Below the pieces are notes generated by a model. It searched no databases. It was not told the origin of the DNA and was given only the letters and a program-made list of their open reading frames with translations. A DNA stretch of 64,000 bases, from positions 43,422-107,421 of the forward strand of contig DATJID010000035.1 in assembly GCA_035493515.1 (NCBI GenBank). The letters run 5' to 3'. How positions within the stretch are numbered: position 1 is the first letter of the stretch; every line of letters starts with the position of its first letter. The DNA is from Candidatus Binataceae bacterium (GTDB lineage: Bacteria > Desulfobacterota > Binatia > Binatales > Binataceae). Below, piece by piece: positions 19,740-53,982 of this stretch. The position numbers and the translations under genes were made by a program.

Positions 19740-21161
19740 TCAGGCTTTGATGTCGGTCGGCTGCGGGCGCCCGTCGGGCTTTTTGATTCCAAATTTGTCC
19801 AGCCGGTATTGCAGCGTGCGATAACTCATCCCGAGCATCTTGGCCGCCTTGGCGATTACCCACTCGGCGCGTTCCATCGCCTGCAAAATCAGATCGCGTT
19901 CGAGATTTTCGAAATTGATTCCCTCGGCCGGCATTTCGAAACGCTCTCCGCGCGCGCGCTCGGCCGGACGCGCAGGCATCTTGCGGGCGAGGACTTCCTG
20001 CGGCAGGTCATGGGGCATAATACGGTCGCCCTCGCACAGGAGGAGCGCGCGTTCGATCGCCGATTCGAGCTGGCGCACATTGCCCGGCCACGAATAGTCG
20101 AGCAGCACCTCCATCGCCTCGCGGCTGATTTCCTTGACCCGGTCGTGCGCCAGGTGGGCAAAGCGATGCTTGAGGGCGTTCTCCGCCAGCAGCGGGATGT
20201 CCGAGCGGCGGTCGCGCAGCGGCGGCAGCGTGATGGTGACGACGTTGATGCGATAGTAGAGGTCCTCGCGAAAGCGTCCCTGGTTGACTTCCTCGGCCAG
20301 CTCGCGGTTGGTGGCTGCGACCAGGCGGACGTCGACCCGAATCGACTCGTTGCCGCCGACGCGGCGCAGTTCGCGCTCCTGCAAGACGCGCAGGAGCTTG
20401 GCCTGGAGGCTGATGTTGAGGTCGGCAATCTCGTCGAGAAAGAGCGTTGACTTGTCCGCGCTCTCGATGAGTCCGATCTTGCGTTCGTTGGCTCCGGTAA
20501 AGGCTCCGCGTTCGTGGCCGAAGAGTTCGTTTTCGATCAGGCTGTCGGGAATCGCCGAGCAGTTGATCGCTACGAATGGCCGCGCCGCGCGCGGCGAGAG
20601 CTTGTGGATCGCGCGCGCGATCACTTCCTTGCCGGTGCCGCTCTCGCCCTGGATAAGCACCGTCGAATACGACGGCGCGACCTTGCGCACCACGCGAATC
20701 ACGTCCTCGATGGCCGGATGCTGTCCCACGATGCCTTCGACCTGGAATTTGCCCTCCAGCCGCCGGCGCAGCAGTATGTTCTCCTGCGCGAGGCTCGCGA
20801 ACTCAGCCGCCTTGCCTACCGTCATCACCAGCTTGTCGCGATCGGTCGGCTTGGTCAGGTATTCGAAGGCGCCGCTTTTGGTCGCCTTGACCGCGCTCTC
20901 GATAGTGCCGTGCGCGGTCAGCAGCACGACCTGGCTGGCCGGATAGGTCTGACGCACCGCGCCAAGGAGTTCTTCGCCGGTCATTCCGGGCATCATCAGG
21001 TCGGTCAACACCACGTCGAAGCTGCCGAGCGCGAGCTGTTCCATCGCGCGTTTGCCGTTAGGCGCCTCGTCGACCAGAAAGCCTTCCTCGCGCAGCGTCT
21101 CGACGGTTATCTGCCGCTCCAGGTCGTTGTCTTCGACCACCAGCACGGAAGGTTGGCTCAT
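19740..21161 (-). CDS. sigma-54-dependent response regulator, NtrC family
   Basis: Receiver domain (VLVVEDND...[14 protein letters not shown]), AAA+ sigma-54 activator ([21 protein letters not shown]) and C-terminal HTH. Confidence 0.85.
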
Positions 21162-22627
21162 GTACGTCTCCCTGGCGCGCCGAACGGCAGAATAAAAGTC
21201 ACCATCGTGCCTCGTCCGGCCGGGTTCGCGCCAATCCGGATGGTGCCGCCGTGACGCTCGACGATCGCTCGCGAGAAAAACAGGCCCAGGCCGATGCCCT
21301 CGCGCTTGGTGGTGAAGAATGGCTCGAAGACATGGCTTGCGACCTCGGGATCGATGCCCGCGCCGGTGTCGGAGAAGGTTATCACTTCGTTGTCGCCGTC
21401 ACGCTTGAACGCGATGTCGAGCTCGCCCCCTTCAGGCATCGCCTGGATCGCATTGGCCACCACGTTGATGAAACAGGCGTGAAGCTTCTCAGCGTCGACG
21501 TTGAGAATAACTGGTGCGTCGGCACCCTGCTGCAGGGCCTGGATCGACTGGCTGCGCAGCTTCGAATCCGACAGTTCCAGAACATTACCGACCAGCGCGC
21601 GCACGTCGGTGGGCGCGGGATGAACCTCTACCGGGCGGCCATAGTTGAGAAAACTCTGGATCAGCTCGGAGAGGCGATGGACCTCGTCCTTCATTACTCC
21701 GAGCTGGCGGCGATAGTTGTCCTGGTCGCTCTGAAGCTGCGGCGCGTACCGCGCGCGTAGCTGGTCGATCGCGAGGCTGATGAAATTGAGCGGATTCTTT
21801 ATCTCGTGCGCCAGCGCGCCGGCTAGCTGGCCGAGTGCCGTGAAGCGCTCCAGCCGGTTAAGTTCGGCTTCGCGCTCGCGCGCGCTGCGCAACTGGTCAA
21901 CCATCTCGTTGAAACTGCGGGTGAGCAGTCCGATTTCGTCGCGCCGATGAGCCGCGGGCACGGGTTCGAGGCCGCGGGCGGCGATATTTTGCGCCGCGGC
22001 CGCGACCGCGTGGATCGGCTCAACGTAGCGGTCGGCCAGCACGTACGAGAAAACCAGCCCGATCGCGAAAATCGCCAGCGCCACCGTCAACAGATGGATC
22101 CGATGCTCCTTCAGCGGCCGCGCGAAATCGGCAAAGTCGGCCACCACCTGGACGTATCCGAGCAGATGGTCCTCGACCTCGACCGGGATGAGATAGACGG
22201 TCTGCTCGCCAGCCGGGCCGACCGTGAAGGCCGGCACCGAGAGCGGGTCACCGCCGTGGACGCCGGTTTGCGTTGACACGTTGCGCACGGTGCCGCGGTT
22301 GATCGCTTCACCGATCAGCGCCGGGTTGGAGCTGTTGATGATCAGGTCCTTGCTCGAGGCAATCGAGACCTCGAGTCCATTGGTGTGCAGCGAGTTGACG
22401 TAGTTCTGCAAGCGATCCCGATCGAAACTGCCGACCGAGGTCAACTCCTGCACGCTTATCTGAATCGCGCTCGCCAGTTCTTTAACGTTGTCCTGGGTCG
22501 CCTCAACGATGCGCGACTGGGTGTTGAGACTGACCAGCAACTCGGCGCCGAGCGTCAGCCCGAGCAGCACCACCATCAGCGCCATCAGCTTGGCTTTGAG
22601 ATTCAGCGCCGGAAGTCTGAATTCCAT
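21158..22627 (-). CDS. sensor histidine kinase
   Basis: N-terminal TM, HisKA H-box (ALAHEIKNPLNFISLAID) and HATPase_c (DTGAGIDPE, GIGLGL). Overlaps the NtrC-family gene by 4 nt. Confidence 0.8.
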   Translation of the reverse strand: MEFRLPALNLKAKLMALMVVLLGLTLGAELLVSLNTQSRIVEATQDNVKELASAIQISVQELTSVGSFDRDRLQNYVNSLHTNGLEVSIASSKDLIINSSNPALIGEAINRGTVRNVSTQTGVHGGDPLSVPAFTVGPAGEQTVYLIPVEVEDHLLGYVQVVADFADFARPLKEHRIHLLTVALAIFAIGLVFSYVLADRYVEPIHAVAAAAQNIAARGLEPVPAAHRRDEIGLLTRSFNEMVDQLRSAREREAELNRLERFTALGQLAGALAHEIKNPLNFISLAIDQLRARYAPQLQSDQDNYRRQLGVMKDEVHRLSELIQSFLNYGRPVEVHPAPTDVRALVGNVLELSDSKLRSQSIQALQQGADAPVILNVDAEKLHACFINVVANAIQAMPEGGELDIAFKRDGDNEVITFSDTGAGIDPEVASHVFEPFFTTKREGIGLGLFFSRAIVERHGGTIRIGANPAGRGTMVTFILPFGAPGRRT

Positions 22628-30410: not shown

Positions 30411-32618
30411 TTGTCAAACCCGATCCGCAAGCGGTCGGCGACCGCTGGGCGGCTGACGGTTTTGCTGATCACGGGATGGACGGCTCTCGTTGTCGCCCGG
30501 CCATGGGCCTCGGCGAGTTCGGTTAGCGGCGAGCCTGCCGCACGGGAACTCGCATCAAAGTCCGGGCAGCCCGCACTGCGGACAGGCCGCGAACCTTCGG
30601 TCCTCGCAGCCTGGACCGCGTCCGCGACGGATCGCGCATTCCGATCTCCACACGACCACACTTTCCCCCAAAGTATTGCTGGACGCTCCGACCGCGCCGC
30701 CGCGCACACGTCGATTAACTTCAGCGCGCTCGCCCGCGAAGAAGTGCGCGGCGCGTTTGGGCCGGCGCACCGCAATCGCGCGATGCGCCCGCGGAGCAAT
30801 CCTTTCGAGCACAATAGCCAGTTCGTTCCGACTCCACCATCCACTCCTGCACTCCGCGCGCGCCGACGGCGGACCGGTAAAGACCCAGCCGGCAAACACG
30901 CAGCACTCCTCGGATTTCCGGGACTCGGCGACAACCAAACCGCGATCCCGCCCGACACCGGGGGCGCCGTCGGTCCGGCTCATCTGGTAGTTGCGCTCAA
31001 TAGCCAGATCGAAATTCAAACTCGCGCGGGAACTTTTGTTAGCTCGATCAGCCTGCTCGGTTTCTGGTCCAGCCTGGGCGTTGGCTCCGTCACCGATCCG
31101 CGAGTGATTTATGACCCATATGGGCAGCGATGGGTCATCGTCACCGCGGCCGACCCGGAAACCACGGCCTCGGCGGTCTTGATCGGTGTCTCGCACAACA
31201 GCGACCCGACCGCGGGCTGGAATCTCTACCGAGTGCCGGTCGATCCGGCGGGCCTGCGATGGGGCGACTTTCCCACGCTCGGTTTCAACAAGAACTGGAT
31301 CGTGGTCGGGATCAACATTTTCACCATCGAGGGCACTTTCTACGAGTTCGCGAACCTTTATGTCTTCGACAAAGCGAACCTGTATGCGGGAGGCTCGGGC
31401 CTCTTCACCTTGCTGCAGGACGACACGGGCGGCTTCGCGATGAATCCGGCCCTCACGTATGATCCCAACCTCGCAACGCTCTATGTTCTGGAGTCGTGGA
31501 GTTCGGCCAACGGCTTGCTGCGAATGAGCACTGTCAGCGGTGCTGTCGGCTCCGAAGTGCTCACCACGGGCGTCGCTTTGCCCGCCGCCTCACAGCCCTG
31601 GCATGCGGTCGAACCCGCGATCAACTTCGCGCCGCAACTGGGTTCCGCCAACCGCATCGATATGGACGACGACCGGCTGGATTGGACCGTCTATCGAAAC
31701 GGATCGCTTTGGACTGCGCAGACGGTCTTCCTCCCGGCCAGTGGCACGCCGAATCGATGCTCGGTGCAGTGGTGGCAGATTGACACTGCGGCGGGCGACG
31801 TGGGCGGTATTCAGCAGCTCGGGCGGATCGACGATCCGACCGCGGCGCGATTCTTCGCCTATCCGTCGATCGGGGTAAATCGCGAGAACGACGCCCTGGT
31901 CGGCTATTCGCAATTCTCCGCCTCGCAGTATGCCGGCGCCGGGTTCTCGATGCGGATGTTCAGTGACCCGTCAGGCACTATGCGCGCCGGCGTCGTGCTC
32001 AAAGCGGGAGAGGCGCCGTACTTCAAGGATTTCGGCACCGGAGATAATCGATGGGGTGATTTCAGCAGCACGACGGTCGATCCACTTGACGACTTGACCC
32101 TCTGGACGCTTCAGGAGTACGCCGCGGCTGGCAACAAATGGGGCACCTGGTGGGGCGAGGTATCCGTTGGACCGACTCCGACTCCCACCGCAACGCCGTC
32201 GCCCACACCCACTGCATCACCGACTCCCACTGCAACCCCGACGCCTACGCCCACACCGAAGCCCACGCCAACACCTACGCCGACTGTGACGCCGTCGCCC
32301 ACACCGACGCCGTCACCCACACCGACGCCGGTACCAACCGCGACGCCCACTCCTAGCTTGACCATCCTCGCAACTGCGCTCCCCGCAGGTAGAGTAGGAG
32401 TCTTCTATCACGCCTCGCTGGGACTGAGCGGCGGCACGCCGCCCTATTTGGTTTATGTCAGTGCAGGCGCGCTGCCGCGAGGACTGGCGCTCAATACCTT
32501 CAATGGTTCAATCAGCGGGACGCCGGGCGCCGCGGGCCTCTCGACATTTATGGTCTACGCCACCGACCGGGGCTCCGAATCGGTGAGCGAAGTCTTTCAG
32601 ATATCGATCATTCGTTGA
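30411..32618 (+). CDS. large secreted protein, paralog A: signal peptide + ~550 aa unrecognised domain + Pro/Thr-rich linker + C-terminal putative-Ig (PF05345-like) domain
   Basis: Signal peptide [37 protein letters not shown] linker [27 protein letters not shown].... C-terminus [50 protein letters not shown] matches the putative-Ig domain pattern. Confidence 0.7.
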
Positions 32619-34339
32619 CGAGTCCTTACGCGCGAAAAATTCTCTATAAATTTTCATGAAATGTGCGCGCCACAGACTATCGCTCTGATAGCCAATTTAT
32701 AGGCGCAGCCATTCGTACTGATTTCTGCGGCGGGTCGTGCATTCAATTCTCGTTTACACAAAGTTTGACGGGGAATTCTCTTTGACGCGGAGTGTTGACG
32801 TGTAGCCCATTGCGATGAAGCGTCTTGGTTCGATCGAAATATGAGTGTCATCAAGCAGCGTTCTGTTTACTCGTTTCGTGCTCGAAATATAATGAACCTT
32901 GTTCTGAAATTTGCAGACTCGCAGCAGTTTGCTCCAAGCGAGATTTTTCTAAATGCAGAAGGTATCCCCCCGAAGAAGGCCTGACAGCAGGGTACCGAAG
33001 GCCTCATGGTTTTCTTCCGCACGATGGGCGAATTCGTCTGCGCGGCTCACCGGACGGTTGTTCGTGGCCAAGGGACGTGAAGTCCGACAGGCGAACGAAG
33101 TTGAAGGTGTAAAAAGTGACTGGGTCGAATCGTCCGGGGACCGGCTGCGTGCCGACGATCAGACCGATAGATCCGGACGGAGCCTCACGCGGGTGGTTCT
33201 TTTCGTTCCGGGACCTATCACCGAAGCTGACCTGCATCGTGAGAATCTCAAAGTCGCCGCGACTATTAGGCATCGTCGCCGGCGGTTTAAACGATTTCAA
33301 TGGCTAACCGAAAACATCGGCACCATCATGTTCGTGACGGCACTACTCGCTGTCATCTGGTTCGTAACGGGCAGATAAACGGCTTGTGGAAAATGGTCCG
33401 AAGCGCGCTGGCGACGGTTCGGACTTAGCGTGAGGACAGGCGCGACCAGTCGCGTCTTGGGCGCAGGCGGCTACAGCGTGCCAGCGATCTAGGAGGTGGG
33501 GCCGGTCAGAGTAGTGTAGAGGCTGTAAAGGACCACGGCGATCAAGGCTGCGGCAAGCACATATTCGGTCGTGGTTTGGCCACGCAGCGATTTTCGTATG
33601 TGTTTATATAGTATTTTCATCTCAAACCCCCTCACGTCACTACATAACGCTACTAAGCGACAATAAAGGAGTCAAGACGGCTGACCCTCCGACTCGTTAC
33701 CTGCTCGATAATTTGGCTATGAGTCCGTATTTATATCTATAATAATCTTTATTATCACGCCTCTGTAAAAATGTCTCGAGGGGGGCTCTGGAAGTCTGTG
33801 CCCATAGCGACGGTCGAGCGTAGGGCCGCGTGCTGCCAGATGGAACGCTTCGACAACCCGACCGCATCAGGCCAGCGGAGCCTTGCGATGGTGCGCCGGC
33901 GGATTTCCCCCTTTGCGGCCTTTCCATTACGCTCGGCTTCGCATTGCTCAAACACGCGCGCCAAAGTAACGCCGGGGCGCAGCCTGTCTCGCGACCGTGC
34001 TAGCGGGTCTAATTTGGACCCCGTGTCCGATCGCCAGGGAACGAGTTGCCGCCTCAGTGGTTTGTGTATCGTGGCCGATACGGTGGGAACGATCACAGCG
34101 TCAGCGTTAGGGCGTTCTCCACTGATACATCCAGAAGCGAAAACCTCCAGCCGCTAACCGTACTCATTCGCACATTACGCTTCGGATCGAAGCATGAGCG
34201 CTTTCGATCTGCCGATGTCTCGCCGGGCCCGCTCAACTGGGCCGAATCCCGACACTGATCTTGTGTCAGGGATAAAAATCGCCAGCCCGGCCTTGTCATT
34301 GCGTTCCATAGCCTTGAACCGAGAGTCGGTCCCGACCGG
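32619..34339. other. AT-richer island lacking long ORFs, between two paralogous secreted-protein genes
   Basis: Base composition is visibly lower in G+C than the flanks (runs like tctctataaattttcatgaaatg, tatttatatctataataatctttattatcac). Only short, ambiguous ORFs in the track. Contains the Flp pilin gene listed next. Confidence 0.7.
33489..33620 (-). CDS. flp: Flp/Fap family type IVb (Tad) prepilin
   Basis: Hand-translated 43-codon ORF not in the track: MKILYKHIRKSLRGQTTTEYVLAAALIAVVLYSLYTTLTGPTS. Basic leader ending in Gly, then QTTTEY + hydrophobic LAAALIAVV, i.e. the Flp motif (G/xxxxEY + hydrophobic core). Strong SD (GAGGGGG) 7 nt upstream; AT-rich promoter-like DNA upstream. Confidence 0.6.
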   Translation of the reverse strand: MKILYKHIRKSLRGQTTTEYVLAAALIAVVLYSLYTTLTGPTS

Positions 34340-36433
34340 GTGTTCCAGAGGCTAACGAAAATGACGACTGCTAAAACTTTAATTTTGAAAGCCATCCTCT
34401 CGATGGCACTCGCGCTGGTGAGCATCCCGTGCGTCCAAACTTTGGCCGCGGCGGCAGCGGTTCGTACCACAGGTACTGCGGGCCATGCGAGTCAGCACAC
34501 CTCCTTCAACTTTGACGCGGCGGCGCATGAAGAGGCGCTTGGCCCGATGCCTCTTAACGAGCATCGTGCAATTCATCGCCCCTTGTCCCCGCAGAATCAA
34601 AGCACCTTACAGAATGAGGACGCGGCTGCCGCACCTCAGAGTGCCGCGGAGGCGCCATCCGCTTCAACTCTGCAGGCGCTGGCACCGGTCAACAGTTTCG
34701 CGGCGATTGGCGACGATGGCACGGTGATTCCGCCGGATACCGAGGGTGCGGTGGGCCCTCATCATCTTATGGAGGCGCTCAACAGCCAGGTCGTTATTCA
34801 AGACCGGTCAGGCAAAATTCTAAGTGCGATCACCAACTGGACCTTTTGGGCTGCTCTGGGTGTCACGCAGTCGTTCGACGCACACATCCTCTACGATCCG
34901 TATGCCCAACGCTGGATCTTCTCCTCCGCCGCCGGCCAGAACTCCTCGGCCGCGGCCATCCTGATCGGGGTCTCGCAAACTAACGATCCCACCGCCGGAT
35001 GGAATATCTACAAGGTAAACCTTGGCTCTTCCGTCAACTGGGTCGATTATCCGACGCTTGGGTTCAACAAAAACTGGATTGTCGTGCAGGCCAACATTTT
35101 CACCGTCGCGGGCAATAGCTTTGTCAACTCGAAGATTTGGGCTTTTGACAAGGCGGACCTATATGCCGGCGGCACGGGCAAATATACCGCGCTCACGCCC
35201 AGCGGTGGCTTCACCCAGGTTCCGGCCACCACGATGGATCCCGATCTCTCGACGTTGTATCTGCTCGAGCAGAGCAGCTCGGGTTCCGGCAGGCTTCGGG
35301 TCGATACCATAACCGGCGCTGTCGGCTCCGAGGTACTGACCAGCGGCGTGGCTTTTCCGACCGGGCCGACAGCCTGGCAAGCTTTCTCGCCCGTCGCCAA
35401 CTTCGCTCCGCAACTCGGCTCCAGCGAGAATATCGCTACTGAGGACGGGCGTATCCAAAGCTGCGTATACCGCAACGGCTCGCTCTGGGCTTCGCATACC
35501 GTCTATCTTCCAGCCACTGGAACTCCGACGCGTACCGCCGCGCAGTGGTGGCAGATCGACATGAGTGCTGCAGCATTCGGACACGTGCAGCAGTTCGGAC
35601 GCATCGATGATCCCAGCGGAGCCAACTTTTACGCCTATCCGTCGCTCGCCGTTAACCGCAACGGCGATGTGATGCTCGGCTATACGCACTTCGGAGTTGG
35701 AATTTATGCGAGCGGAGCCTACTCGATCCATCTGGCGAGCGACGCTCCCAACACCATGGAGAGCGAGGTCATTCTAAAGGCCGGAGAGGCCCCTTATTTC
35801 TGGGACTTCGGCACTGGCGTAAACCGATGGGGCGACTTTACCGCAACCGTGGTCGATCCGACCGACGATACTTCCATGTGGACGATTCAGGAGTATGCGG
35901 GTCAAAGCAATATGTGGGGCACGTGGTGGGGTTCGATAACGCCCGGAGCGTCCGCTGCGACGGCCACGCCCACAGCCACCGCGACACCTGCTCCCACCGC
36001 GACGCCGACACCCCAGCTGACCGCGACGCCAACCCCCGCCGCCACTTCGACCCCGACGCCGGCGGCAACTCCGACGCCCTCAGCGTTGATCATCGGCGCT
36101 CACGGAGCGCTACCCCATGGGCATAGAACGGCGACTTACAGCGCCTCGTTAGAGGTGAAGGGTGGCAGCCAACCTTACCTCATGGCAGTGGTGATGGGCC
36201 ATCTGCCTCCGGGCCTCTCTATCGATCAGACCTCTGGCGCGATCACGGGAGTCGCGCTCAAGGCAGGTATTTGGTATCCGACAATTCGGGTGATCGACGC
36301 CGCAGGCAAAAGGGCACGCAGGAAATTCTCGCTGACCGTGAAGCAAGTCACGGCTGCATACTGTGAGCGGACGCTGCTATGCCAGGAGCCAAAAACGAAC
36401 GTCCTGTTGGCCAGTGCCAGGATCGGAAGCTAA
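34340..36433 (+). CDS. large secreted protein, paralog B: same architecture as 30411..32618
   Basis: Signal peptide (MTTAKTLILKAILSMALALVSIPCVQTLAAAAA). Extended collinear similarity to paralog A (e.g. IPPDTEGAVGPHHL / [14 protein letters not shown]; ILYDPYAQRW / [10 protein letters not shown]; TNDPTAGWNIYKV / [13 protein letters not shown]; [14 protein letters not shown] / [14 protein letters not shown]; NRWGDFTATVVDPTDD / [16 protein letters not shown]). PT linker, then putative-Ig C-terminus. Confidence 0.7.
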   Translation: MFQRLTKMTTAKTLILKAILSMALALVSIPCVQTLAAAAAVRTTGTAGHASQHTSFNFDAAAHEEALGPMPLNEHRAIHRPLSPQNQSTLQNEDAAAAPQSAAEAPSASTLQALAPVNSFAAIGDDGTVIPPDTEGAVGPHHLMEALNSQVVIQDRSGKILSAITNWTFWAALGVTQSFDAHILYDPYAQRWIFSSAAGQNSSAAAILIGVSQTNDPTAGWNIYKVNLGSSVNWVDYPTLGFNKNWIVVQANIFTVAGNSFVNSKIWAFDKADLYAGGTGKYTALTPSGGFTQVPATTMDPDLSTLYLLEQSSSGSGRLRVDTITGAVGSEVLTSGVAFPTGPTAWQAFSPVANFAPQLGSSENIATEDGRIQSCVYRNGSLWASHTVYLPATGTPTRTAAQWWQIDMSAAAFGHVQQFGRIDDPSGANFYAYPSLAVNRNGDVMLGYTHFGVGIYASGAYSIHLASDAPNTMESEVILKAGEAPYFWDFGTGVNRWGDFTATVVDPTDDTSMWTIQEYAGQSNMWGTWWGSITPGASAATATPTATATPAPTATPTPQLTATPTPAATSTPTPAATPTPSALIIGAHGALPHGHRTATYSASLEVKGGSQPYLMAVVMGHLPPGLSIDQTSGAITGVALKAGIWYPTIRVIDAAGKRARRKFSLTVKQVTAAYCERTLLCQEPKTNVLLASARIGS

Positions 36434-50633: not shown

Positions 50634-52256
50634 CTACGGAACGCCGCTTTGCACTCGTATATTGTCTTTGAGCGAAACCACGCCCGCGACGTTCAACGCC
50701 AGCATCTGCACCATCGCTTCGTCGGTCGCGGTCGGTACCGTGCCCGTCAGCACCATCGTGTCTCCGACCATACGGAAGTGCACGCCGGTCAGGCCGCCGG
50801 CGTCGAGCGCGGCGCGAAAAGCGTCCAGCCGCGCGGCGCGAAATTCCAAGGGCGGCGAATCGGGGCCCGGCGCTCCGGGCTCCGCCTCCGGCGCTGGCAG
50901 GCCAGGTGCGGGCGCGTCGGCGCGGGTCGCGTCGGGCGGATTGGCTCCCGAATCGGTTCCGCCTCCGACCAGGTTCAGGCACGAGACCGCTCTGACTGCC
51001 GCGAAAGTTCCCACGAAGATCAACACCAGCACCAGGATCGGACGGCGCGCGCCGCGCGTGCGGCGAGATACCGGCGCGCCGCTGGGCGCGAAACGCGCGC
51101 GCTCCTCGCTCGCGGGTGGAACCGACAAGAGCACGGTAGAGGCTTCATGATCGGCCGGAGCGCCGGCTGGGGCGGCGGGCGGCGCGAAACTCACCTCCGC
51201 GCCGCAGAAGGAACAGAAGCGCGAGTCGGAGGGAATCGCCCGTCCGCATTCGCGGCAATCGAATTCCGCCTCCGTACGGAGCACCGTGGGCGCCGACGGT
51301 GACGCGGCTCGCGGAGCGCCGGCGCTCCCGAGCGGCAGCTGAAGCTGCGAACGTGCGCCGGAGGGCGGCGGCGCCGGCGCGGCTGATTGCGCCTCTTCCG
51401 TCGCGCTCGCTTGTGCTCCGTCGTTGGCGTGCTCCGGCCGGTCCGCCCCAACGCCGCCGAGGCGAATCTCTTCCAGCCGGCGCTTGAATTCCGCTGCGCT
51501 TGGCACGCGCCGCTCGACGTCGTAGGCGAGCGCGTCGTCCACCAGCGCCGCCAGCGCGGGCTCGACCTCGGGACATAACCTGCCGAGCGGCGGAAAGCTG
51601 AAGGGCGCTTCATTGGCCGGGTCGCGGCCGCTAAGCGCGTGATGCATCGTGGCGCCGAGCGCGTAAAGATCCGAGCGCTGCTCGACCTTGCCGCGGTATT
51701 GCTCGGGCGGCGCATAGCCCTGGGTGCCGATCATGGTCGCGTTTTGCTGCGGCTGGAAATGGCGCGCGATACCGAAGTCGATAAGCTTGGCCTGTCCGTT
51801 GACCATCATCATCACGTTGGACGGCTTGAGGTCGCGGTAAATCACCGGCGGTTCGAGTCCGTGCAGGTACTCAAGCGTGGCGAGAATTTGCAGCGCGATA
51901 TCGATTGTGCGCGGCTCGGCCAACCGCCCACCGGTTTGCTTCATCTCCTCTTCGAGCGTCGCGCCGTCGATATATTCCATCACCAGGTAATGACGGTTCT
52001 GTTCGCTGAAGCGGTCGAAGACGCGGGGGATGTGCTCGTTGTTGAGCCGCGCCAGCATGTCGGCCTCGCGCTGGAAGGCGTCGACCGCCTGGCGCTGCGC
52101 GTCGGGGTTGGTGAAATTGTCCACCACCTCGGCCAATGCGCAGCGGCGCGCGGCGAGGCGCAGGTCCTCGGCCAGGTAAACCAGCTTCATCCCGCCGCCG
52201 CCCAGTGGCTTCACGACACGGTAGCGGCCGCCGACTATGGTGTTTGGAGCAATCAT
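50634..52256 (-). CDS. Hanks-type Ser/Thr protein kinase with Zn-ribbon, TM segment and C-terminal BON domain
   Basis: GGGGMKLVY Gly-loop/Lys, HRDLKPSNV catalytic loop, DFG, APE. Then CRECG...CSFCG, a TM (ILVLVLIFVGTFAAV), and a BON-like C-terminus (VHFRMVGDTMVLTGTV...SLKDNIRVQ). Confidence 0.8.
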   Translation of the reverse strand: MIAPNTIVGGRYRVVKPLGGGGMKLVYLAEDLRLAARRCALAEVVDNFTNPDAQRQAVDAFQREADMLARLNNEHIPRVFDRFSEQNRHYLVMEYIDGATLEEEMKQTGGRLAEPRTIDIALQILATLEYLHGLEPPVIYRDLKPSNVMMMVNGQAKLIDFGIARHFQPQQNATMIGTQGYAPPEQYRGKVEQRSDLYALGATMHHALSGRDPANEAPFSFPPLGRLCPEVEPALAALVDDALAYDVERRVPSAAEFKRRLEEIRLGGVGADRPEHANDGAQASATEEAQSAAPAPPPSGARSQLQLPLGSAGAPRAASPSAPTVLRTEAEFDCRECGRAIPSDSRFCSFCGAEVSFAPPAAPAGAPADHEASTVLLSVPPASEERARFAPSGAPVSRRTRGARRPILVLVLIFVGTFAAVRAVSCLNLVGGGTDSGANPPDATRADAPAPGLPAPEAEPGAPGPDSPPLEFRAARLDAFRAALDAGGLTGVHFRMVGDTMVLTGTVPTATDEAMVQMLALNVAGVVSLKDNIRVQSGVP

Positions 52257-52274
52257 CGCAACGGGTCGCGGTAG

Positions 52275-52682
52275 TTAATGCGACGGCGGTCCTGCCGTCA
52301 ACGCCCGGGAGGCGCGAATCCCGCGCCGCTCCGCGTCCAGCGCCGCGGCGCGCGCCGCTGACACTGCGCAAACCAGGTGAATAAGTAGGCCCAGCGACGT
52401 CGAAATTCCGTAAGCGAACAGCGCCCCGAAAAACCATCCGACCGCGCGCCCCGTGCGCCCCGCGTAAAAATGGCCGAGCCCCGGCACCATACTCAGCACG
52501 AACGCGATAAGCGCGGGCGAATTCAGATCGCCGAACCATCCCGCAACTCCGAGCCGCGCGCCGCACTGTTTGCAGAACACCGCCGCCGGGACTACCACCG
52601 GCTGGCCGCACTGCGAACAGAAACGCGCCCGCGTGGTTGCCGTTTGGGCGATTCCCGTGCCGGCCATGCGGATTTCAGCCAT
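52275..52682 (-). CDS. zinc-ribbon + TM2-domain small membrane protein
   Basis: MAEIRMAG start at 52682 overlaps the FHA-gene stop. CSQCG...CKQCG, then TM2-like GLGHFYAG with two hydrophobic helices. Confidence 0.5.
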   Translation of the reverse strand: MAEIRMAGTGIAQTATTRARFCSQCGQPVVVPAAVFCKQCGARLGVAGWFGDLNSPALIAFVLSMVPGLGHFYAGRTGRAVGWFFGALFAYGISTSLGLLIHLVCAVSAARAAALDAERRGIRASRALTAGPPSH

Positions 52683-53982
52683 GGAACACAAACGGTGCGT
52701 CGCCCAGCCGCACTTCGTCGCCGTTGGCGAGCTGGCGTGACCCGTCGATCCGCTGGCCGCGGATGAAGGTGCCGTTCTGGCTGGAGAGGTCGCGCAGCGC
52801 GAAGCCGCCGTTTTGCGGCACGATAGTGGCGTGATGGCGCGAGACCGAAGCGTCGGCGACCACGATGTCGTTGTCGATCGCGCGGCCCAAATTCGTGGGC
52901 GCGCGCGGTCGCAACTCGTGCCGGCTGCCGTTTGCGTCAACCAGGCATGGCGTCGCCATCCGACCGACGTGCGGCGGCACCGCGGGCCGCGCGGGTTCGC
53001 CGTATTGACCCTCCTGGCGCACGACGGCGGGACGCGGCCCGGCACTCGCGCGCTTGAGATGGAAGCTCAATTCGTAGTCGGAAATTTTGATCCGGTCGCC
53101 CTCGCGCAGCTCGGCGGTTTCGATTCGGCTGCCATTGAGCGACACGCCCTGCTGCACGGCGAGGCTTTTCAGCACGTAGGTGTTGCCATGGCGCTCGATC
53201 ACCGCATGGCGCGGCTGCACGCCGGGGTCGCCAAAAAGTCCGACCGCATTTTCTTCGGCGCGCCCGAGCGTAGCCGCGGCGCGATCGATATTGAAGCTGC
53301 GCCCGCGCAGCCGCCCGGCCTCGACATTTAGCCACGCGCTCTTGGTCAGCTCTTGCACCAGCCCGATCAGCAGTCCGACCGCCAACCCGAGCGCGCACAA
53401 TCCGAACAGCCGCGAATATAGCCCGCTGGCGTTGGCTCCGATGACGTCGAAGGCCACGCCGCCAGCGAAGCCGCCCACCCATCCGCCGACTGCGCCCTTT
53501 ACGATGTTGCGTAGCGAACCCCCGAGGTCCTTGAGCGAGCCGCTCGCGAGGCCCACGCCGGCGCCGCAGATAAAGCCCATCAGGACCCATCCGATTACCC
53601 GCGCGATACGCAGATAGATCTCCGAACCAGGCTGGTTGGCGCCCCATCCGCCGGCCGACAGGATCATCGTGAAGACGAGATTGGAGTAATAAACCGCGGG
53701 CAACCCGATGAGGAAGCAGACCACGAGTCCGATTAAAAAGCGCCGCGTTGCCGCCGGCGAAAACTGCAGGCTTTTGCCCTGCGCCGCCACGATCAATCCA
53801 CCGACCAGCCCCCAGAACAATGCCATAGAGGCGACGCCCGCTATTTGGGTCCAGACGTCCTCGACCTGCGTGATGCTGTGGCCATGGCTGACCAGCTCGA
53901 CCGGAATCCATCCGAGCGCCCCGCCGATGAGTCCGGCCAGGGCCAGAAAGGTAAGTTCACGGCGGTCAATGGCGTCGTTCAT
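52675..53982 (-). CDS. polytopic membrane protein with two C-terminal FHA domains
   Basis: ~230 aa multi-TM N-terminus. FHA1 (GRAEENAVGLFGDPGVQPRHAVIERHGNTYVLKSLAVQQGVSLNG) and FHA2 (GRAIDNDIVVADASVSRHHATIVPQNGGFALRDLSSQNGTFIRG). Confidence 0.75.
   Translation of the reverse strand: MNDAIDRRELTFLALAGLIGGALGWIPVELVSHGHSITQVEDVWTQIAGVASMALFWGLVGGLIVAAQGKSLQFSPAATRRFLIGLVVCFLIGLPAVYYSNLVFTMILSAGGWGANQPGSEIYLRIARVIGWVLMGFICGAGVGLASGSLKDLGGSLRNIVKGAVGGWVGGFAGGVAFDVIGANASGLYSRLFGLCALGLAVGLLIGLVQELTKSAWLNVEAGRLRGRSFNIDRAAATLGRAEENAVGLFGDPGVQPRHAVIERHGNTYVLKSLAVQQGVSLNGSRIETAELREGDRIKISDYELSFHLKRASAGPRPAVVRQEGQYGEPARPAVPPHVGRMATPCLVDANGSRHELRPRAPTNLGRAIDNDIVVADASVSRHHATIVPQNGGFALRDLSSQNGTFIRGQRIDGSRQLANGDEVRLGDAPFVFHG

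Follow-up and report, generated by a model that had tools for sequence, protein, structure and literature searches.

Pilins of the Flp/Fap (Tad, type IVc) family carry a Ser or Thr at position 2 and a Glu at position 5 of the mature protein, followed by a hydrophobic α1 helix of about 20 residues, and measure 40–60 residues after maturation, 45 in the case of Caulobacter PilA (PMC10710030). A truncated, helix-only pilin has been described in Geobacter sulfurreducens, where PilA-N comprises 65 residues (PMC10710030). In rhizobia, orphan flp genes situated away from the tad/flp cluster, such as smc02446 of S. meliloti and pilA/ctpA of A. fabrum, are thought to be assembled by distant machinery (PMC10934763). 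The present analysis concerns mini-flp, a 43-codon gene on the minus strand (33620 to 33489) of a 64-kb stretch of DNA, hereafter the window, from a Candidatus Binataceae metagenome-assembled genome (MAG). The gene was found where the initial annotation had placed it, and its translation, MKILYKHIRKSLRGQTTTEYVLAAALIAVVLYSLYTTLTGPTS, reads as described there: a basic leader running to Gly14, then QTTTEY, then a hydrophobic helix. We propose, with a probability of roughly 0.6, that mini-Flp is a truncated Flp (Tad/type IVc) prepilin paralogue used by a distant tad system as an alternative or minor helix-only subunit.

Homology and conservation of mini-Flp

The assignment of mini-Flp to the Flp pilins is carried by profile–profile comparison. 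When aligned with hhalign, the mini-Flp family and twelve tad-linked Binataceae-type Flps matched over positions 2–41, leader included (98.9%, E 1.1e-17), a result that we regard, at the level of sequence, as decisive for homology despite a sub-threshold Pfam match (see below). By this measure mini-Flp is a homologue of tad-linked Flp that retains the predicted cleavage and assembly motifs. The Flp motif G/XXXXEY appears as SLRG14 followed by Q-T-T-T-E19-Y20, and both signature residues of a type IV pilin, the mature Thr2 and Glu5, are found without exception in the mini-Flp family. When 1.84 billion representatives were searched with a profile of the family, 47 proteins reached E ≤ 1e-3, of which most were Flp-like and several were longer or fragmentary calls; many were proteins of 50–70 aa of the type RGQTMTEYALILAAIAVVVYGxYxxLGNNIGSLANGVDSxLTNA. 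Twenty-one of the profile matches were chosen for an alignment with three mini-Flps (A4), and three of these lie above what is approximately the Pfam cut-off (best E 5.4e-20). A profile search of the PDB returned only two matches, both of them mature Tad pilins (8u1k, PilA; 8u2b, a Flp family type IVb pilin), in a register that makes the residue after G14 mature residue 1, with E values of 0.17–0.19 that are not significant alone. The AlphaFold model of mini-Flp is a single helix spanning residues 2–39, with a pLDDT of 87–91 for residues 21–40.

Mini-flp is a real gene under purifying selection. A search of 5.8 billion proteins gave homologues in 27 clusters of 63–95% identity, 20 of which have a length of 43 aa, one of 42 aa and one of 44 aa, while the remaining five measure 51 aa and have a longer leader. 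Every family member has G14, T16 and E19, 27 of the 28 also have Y20, and the mature core, TEYVLAAALIAVVLYSLYTTLT, hardly varies. Compared with a relative of ~92% identity (locus L010), the gene differs at two first, one second and ten third codon positions. The ratio of non-synonymous to synonymous change (dN/dS) in nine further loci was 0.05–0.29, with synonymous sites near saturation (proportion of synonymous differences, pS, 0.6–0.75) and a non-synonymous proportion (pN) of 0.0–0.13 in the mature part. The stop codon alternates between TAG, TAA and TGA from lineage to lineage and no conservation is seen 3' of it; an extension of the product by read-through or frameshift is therefore excluded.

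The conserved unit itself is compact. In a DNA alignment of seven lineages, conservation begins at TTGACY, takes in TAnnnT, a short leader and GAGG, and ends with the stop codon; outside these limits the sequences are unalignable, and the pattern TTGACY-17-TAnnnT is common to all seven despite their unrelated flanks. Since conservation runs only from the -35 element to the stop, the mini-flp unit is about 190 nt long and consists of one promoter and one small gene. The elements of this putative promoter in the window are TTGACT (-35, 33675 to 33670) and TAGCGT (-10, 33652 to 33647), separated by a 17-nt spacer. Neither this conserved promoter nor any convincing terminator of mini-flp was picked up by a generic scan for such elements. 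The gene also has a Shine–Dalgarno sequence of its own, GAGGGGG, as had been recorded initially (Table 1), and in other lineages GAGGTGA stands at the equivalent position.

The GenBank record of the source MAG does not annotate this small, conserved gene: only two accessions lie there between HTJ09041 and HTJ09044, and HTJ09044.1 matches the DegQ of the window exactly. Homologues elsewhere have been named automatically as Flp pilins, by NCBI as 'Flp family type IVb pilin' (MGZ6184811.1; P0246) and by IMG as 'Flp pilus assembly pilin Flp', and the novelty of the finding is therefore modest. The genomes that match are Candidatus Binataceae MAGs, some of them labelled 'uncultured delta proteobacterium', with one match per genome in six MAGs. 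The mini-Flp family appears to be confined to the Binataceae.

Tad loci in the Binataceae and the role proposed for mini-Flp

That no tad/cpa assembly gene occurs in the 64 kb, as the initial annotation had reported, was borne out by a Pfam scan of about 45 ORFs of at least 150 aa, picked from a gene map based on the G+C content of third codon positions (GC3): no T2SSE, T2SSF, secretin, RcpC, TadZ or A24 gene was found among them. Nor was a tad/cpa gene present on a matching contig that covers about 33–44 kb, as judged by the Pfam annotation of its genes, and a search of the window in six frames did not find a second pilin-like ORF with a G-x4-EY motif. With the hhalign homology and no tad gene beside mini-flp, the description of a Flp-type prepilin that stands alone holds. 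The window does contain a range of housekeeping genes (MTHFR, rpiA, icd, plsX, nrdR, ribD, ribBA, lptE, mla, nadA, prfA, prmC and aroA). In relatives, mini-flp was found in at least four contexts, namely between He_PIG paralogues, between gltBD/RidA and an amino-acid permease, upstream of rpmG-secE-nusG, and between a thioesterase gene and the gene of a FAD enzyme.

The family Binataceae has tad machinery. Flps of 62–63 aa head loci of the order flp, (tadE-like), cpaB, cpaC, cpaE, cpaF/tadA, tadB, tadC, and Flp relatives heading such loci, P0118 (L020) and P0182 (L022), were found with a profile designated A5. The proteins of these tad loci bear the names of Candidatus Binataceae MAGs at NCBI, and so do HemA and TadA on their contigs. 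The two kinds of gene also meet in the same samples. P0246 is the mini-Flp of a sister lineage, ~92% identical to the window and in the same synteny, and it occurs as an exact match together with an exact match of the tad CpaE P0279 in ERZ25039543, 546, 548 and 458. These are four of the six samples listed for P0246, with ten listed for P0279, where an overlap of 0.4 would be expected if about 148 samples are assumed (P ~1.5e-4). In ERZ25039548 the tad contig (contig_14247) and the mini-flp contig (contig_8962) are both also in NCBI. The NCBI accession numbers MGZ6175360 and MGZ6184811 lie 9,451 apart and do not evidently belong to one MAG. The case that genomes with mini-flp carry a tad locus elsewhere is thus strong but indirect. 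Since the complete tad loci of the Binataceae have Flp pilins that share leader and helix with mini-Flp, and since these loci co-occur by sample with the copy of the sister lineage, the earlier suggestion of a tad locus elsewhere that serves the lone prepilin is plausible.

The Binataceae tad loci comprise L020 (10001–19593), L022 (8273–20189), L024–L033 and L041–L050. A divergent sigma-54 response regulator comes next after the tad locus wherever the downstream flank was read (L020–L022 and L024–L033), and L022 carries a run of three flp-like genes. P0279, the CpaE of L041–L050, is labelled 'Bryobacteraceae bacterium' in one NCBI Third Party Annotation MAG, while its 90% cluster is otherwise Candidatus Binataceae; the label is probably binning or taxonomy noise.

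On the reading that we prefer, mini-flp would be an expressed single-copy gene, transcribed from a conserved sigma-70-type promoter that serves no other gene. The basic 14-residue leader would keep mini-Flp N-in in the inner membrane, and a TadV/CpaA-type prepilin peptidase would cut after Gly14 to give a 29-residue, all-helical peptide starting with QTTTEY (Thr2, Glu5, Tyr6). The peptide would then be taken up by Tad machinery encoded elsewhere and would serve in the Tad pilus as a core-only subunit, either alternative or minor. What we infer here is that the leader is cleaved, that this very genome has tad and that the peptide is incorporated into a filament. The invariance of Thr2 and Glu5 argues for selection on processing and assembly and not on mere membrane anchoring.

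Several points weigh against this reading. With 29 residues, mature mini-Flp falls below the range of 40–60 aa of described Tad pilins, the C-terminal ~13 residues of canonical Binataceae Flp are absent from it (29 versus 42 aa mature), and the ability of such a stub to polymerise is hypothetical. No tad gene lies within 10 kb of mini-flp in any of the four contexts seen in relatives, and an A24 peptidase was seen neither in the window nor within 10 kb of the Binataceae tad loci L020–L022. Occurrence in the same sample does not equal occurrence in the same genome, and tad in the window's own genome is deduced from the family and the samples. Finally, mini-Flp matched the Pfam model Flp_Fap (PF04964) with 16.8 bits and E 0.006, against a gathering cut-off of 32.2, and an NCBIfam scan of the peptide gave no meaningful match. 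The Flp_Fap match covers only 25 of the 46 model positions because mini-Flp is truncated, and all 28 family members match the model weakly (best E 3.3e-5); the gathering threshold serves an operational purpose and is no biological feature. The initial annotation had named Flp_Fap as a check on the peptide, which by itself stayed below threshold, and it was the profile–profile homology to tad-linked Flp that decided in favour of the pilin assignment. A search of the literature on pili in Binatota/Binatia found nothing relevant.

The alternative that survives best, which we nevertheless consider unlikely, is that mini-Flp is a pilin-derived inner-membrane peptide, cleaved or not, that forms a single helix and is no longer a filament subunit. 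Its partner might be an unrelated membrane protein or else, for instance, the TadB/C platform or the prepilin peptidase, in which case the peptide could modulate Tad assembly, prime it or compete in it. The shortness of mini-Flp speaks for this reading, with 29 aa in the mature form against the 40–60 aa of Tad pilins and with the surface-exposed tail gone, and so does its gene, which is always unlinked from tad and under its own promoter. Even interchangeable hydrophobic residues are near-invariant, which suggests one specific helix–helix partner. Tight core packing in a filament accounts equally for this conservation, however, and no conserved neighbouring partner gene was seen. Moreover, Thr2 and Glu5, both of them invariant, typify the processing and assembly of type IV pilins, and a charge would be costly in a plain anchor.

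Somewhat more doubtful still is the idea that mini-Flp represents a distinct class, a stand-alone 'core-only' type IV pilin of 29 residues, the shortest known and kept by very strong selection, which would seed or build an unusually thin Tad filament or, as a membrane peptide derived from a pilin, tune the Tad machine, and would not be an ordinary alternative subunit. As it stands, mini-Flp is an unannotated and unusually short relative in the Flp family, not a new kind of system, and the only feature of it that deserves closer study is the mature length of 29 aa. Should the 29-aa peptide polymerise, the smallest size known for a type IV pilin would be revised downwards, and a minimal model for the assembly of helix-only filaments would be gained; if it does not, mini-flp is a routine orphan flp gene. 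In either case the Binataceae, an uncultured soil lineage, have complete tad loci together with a truncated, unlinked Flp paralogue.

The low-GC gap and its neighbours

Mini-flp lies in a gap of 1721 nt (32619–34339) whose G+C content (GC) of 0.545 is the lowest of any 1.7-kb stretch of the window (mean 0.638, standard deviation 0.028), in line with the initial description of the gap as poorer in G+C than the rest. The composition is patchy, with values of 0.45 at 32619–32952 and 33621–33800 and of 0.57–0.66 elsewhere. The gap had also been said to have no convincing long ORF, which had to be revised, as it contains a conserved 141-aa gene, orf141, on the plus strand (Table 1). Its basic product has a transmembrane helix at the C-terminus and a conserved RHRRRR stretch, belongs to no Pfam family and is 99% identical to HTJ09041.1, which is NCBI's 104-aa version. 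Compared with L010, orf141 is intact and without indels, with 11, 4 and 25 differences at the first, second and third codon positions, respectively. Homologues were found down to 40% identity, and the gene appears to be specific to the Binataceae. At this position other lineages carry a coiled-coil gene that is unrelated to orf141, which is therefore not a conserved partner of mini-flp. Other ORFs of the gap (128, 113, 95, 98, 66, 53 and 47 aa) were rejected, being broken in L010, devoid of third-position bias, or out-of-frame overlaps with orf141. The least conserved part in comparison with L010 is 33700–34100 (identity 0.61–0.79), where the ORFs are broken in L010, and Rfam gave no match in 32400–34500 at E ≤ 1.

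Table 1. Features of the mini-flp region, in coordinates of the window
Feature	Position	Strand	Basis or description
mini-flp coding sequence, 43 codons + TAG	33489..33620	-	Sequence and ORF list
Leader, codons 1–14, MKILYKHIRKSLRG	33620 to 33579	-	Basic, ends in Gly14
Predicted mature peptide, codons 15–43, QTTTEYVLAAALIAVVLYSLYTTLTGPTS, 29 aa	33578 to 33492	-	
Shine–Dalgarno sequence GAGGGGG	33627..33633 (33633 to 33627)	-	6 nt 5' of the mini-flp ATG
Putative sigma-70-type promoter of mini-flp	33647..33675	-	Deduced from conservation
orf141, 141 aa	32953..33378	+	Conserved gene, convergent with mini-flp
Divergent intergenic region, mini-flp to paralogue B	33621..34339	.	GC, comparison with L010
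Paralogue A	30411..32618	+	Signal peptide, ~500-aa domain without Pfam match, Pro/Thr linker, He_PIG Ig-like domain
Paralogue B	34340..36433	+	Architecture as paralogue A

The genes on either side of the gap are paralogous, as had been proposed, with 50% identity over 497 aa. A functional tie of mini-flp to these surface proteins was not seen, and in other lineages the gene sits in three unrelated contexts. In its linker, paralogue A has insertions of 48 and 36 nt relative to L010 (32100–32300). The 697-aa product of 36551–38644 (minus strand) was considered as a third paralogue and ruled out, as it has no similarity to A or B; it has no Pfam match, and its length equals that of one neighbouring paralogue. 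A second long gap without a long ORF follows at 38645–39771 (1127 nt, GC 0.575), which in comparison with L010 shows a 30-nt indel and an identity of 0.63 near 38700, and in which a 98-aa ORF has been called in a related contig.

The initial annotation had seen in this region horizontally acquired or hypervariable DNA, in which case mini-Flp would be a cargo pilin on an acquired island, having arrived with the flanking surface-protein genes. The composition is what such an origin might leave behind, since the gap is the lowest-GC stretch of the window, mini-flp and orf141 have a GC3 of 0.61 and 0.59 compared to ~0.80 for typical genes, and that of the flanking paralogues is also lowered (0.69–0.72). 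An island of this kind is nonetheless very improbable. Synteny of the region with L010 extends over 16.8 kb at ~92% identity, and the He_PIG-paralogue context of mini-flp recurs on contigs of 1.2, 2.2 and 3.0 Mb. Scans of the window revealed no tRNA, flanking repeat, integrase or transposase that would mark an island boundary, a tblastn search against plasmids and phages gave no match, and the mini-Flp family is, as noted, apparently Binataceae-specific. The GC3 of mini-flp is low in every lineage and context (0.55–0.68), and the intergenic DNA around canonical flp genes is low in GC as well (0.51–0.55). In view of the synteny, the absence of mobile-element marks and the lineage-wide low GC3, recent horizontal acquisition is therefore unsupported, and the low GC of the gap reflects long, promoter-bearing spacers and two small genes with weak codon bias.

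Scarcely credible, finally, is that mini-flp is a chance ORF or a canonical flp decaying into a pseudogene, as its shortness relative to canonical Flp and its absence from the source MAG record might suggest, given that a length of 43 aa is fixed over synonymously saturated lineages at a dN/dS of ~0.1, that promoter, Shine–Dalgarno sequence and start codon are all conserved, and that conservation ends at a stop codon which itself varies.

Farther away in the window, 50634–53982 and 19740–22627 (both on the minus strand) encode a Ser/Thr kinase with a zinc ribbon beside a double-FHA protein and, separately, an NtrC-type sigma-54 regulator with a histidine kinase; these gene pairs are not linked to the mini-flp finding.

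Comparison with described pilins

With the tad-linked Flp of the Binataceae (62–63 aa), mini-Flp has in common the leader xYVRIRES..RG, the junction G/QTxTEY, the hydrophobic helix and the bacterial family. The consensus of these canonical proteins (P0118, P0182) is the RGQTMTEY…LTNA type given above, and Thr2, Glu5, Tyr6, Tyr18 and Tyr21 are kept in both. The two part at the C-terminus, where mini-Flp ends after ..YTTLTGPTS, with 29 aa in the mature form compared to 42 aa. They also differ in the arrangement of their genes, as mini-flp is single, away from tad and of lower GC3, whereas canonical Binataceae flp genes can be in tandem.

The PilA of Caulobacter crescentus (8u1k) and the second Flp-family type IVb pilin (8u2b/8ucr) are single-helix proteins like mini-Flp, and both align with it in register from mature residue 2 onwards (TxxEY.L.AALIAVV...TTL). 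Caulobacter PilA, with its 45 mature residues, is encoded at the head of the cpa locus, whereas mini-Flp is 16 residues shorter and unlinked. The truncation is reminiscent of Geobacter PilA-N, which, in contrast, is a type IVa pilin (Phe1, Pro22, short leader) with its partner PilA-C encoded immediately downstream. A split pilin of this kind was ruled out for mini-flp, as no conserved partner lies downstream of it and the downstream gene is convergent and differs by lineage.

In its genomic arrangement mini-flp resembles the orphan flp genes of Sinorhizobium and Agrobacterium, which are likewise Flp-motif paralogues apart from the tad cluster. The rhizobial orphans are full-length, and smc02446 is co-transcribed with the gene of a membrane protein, whereas mini-flp is monocistronic, truncated and found in an uncultured lineage.

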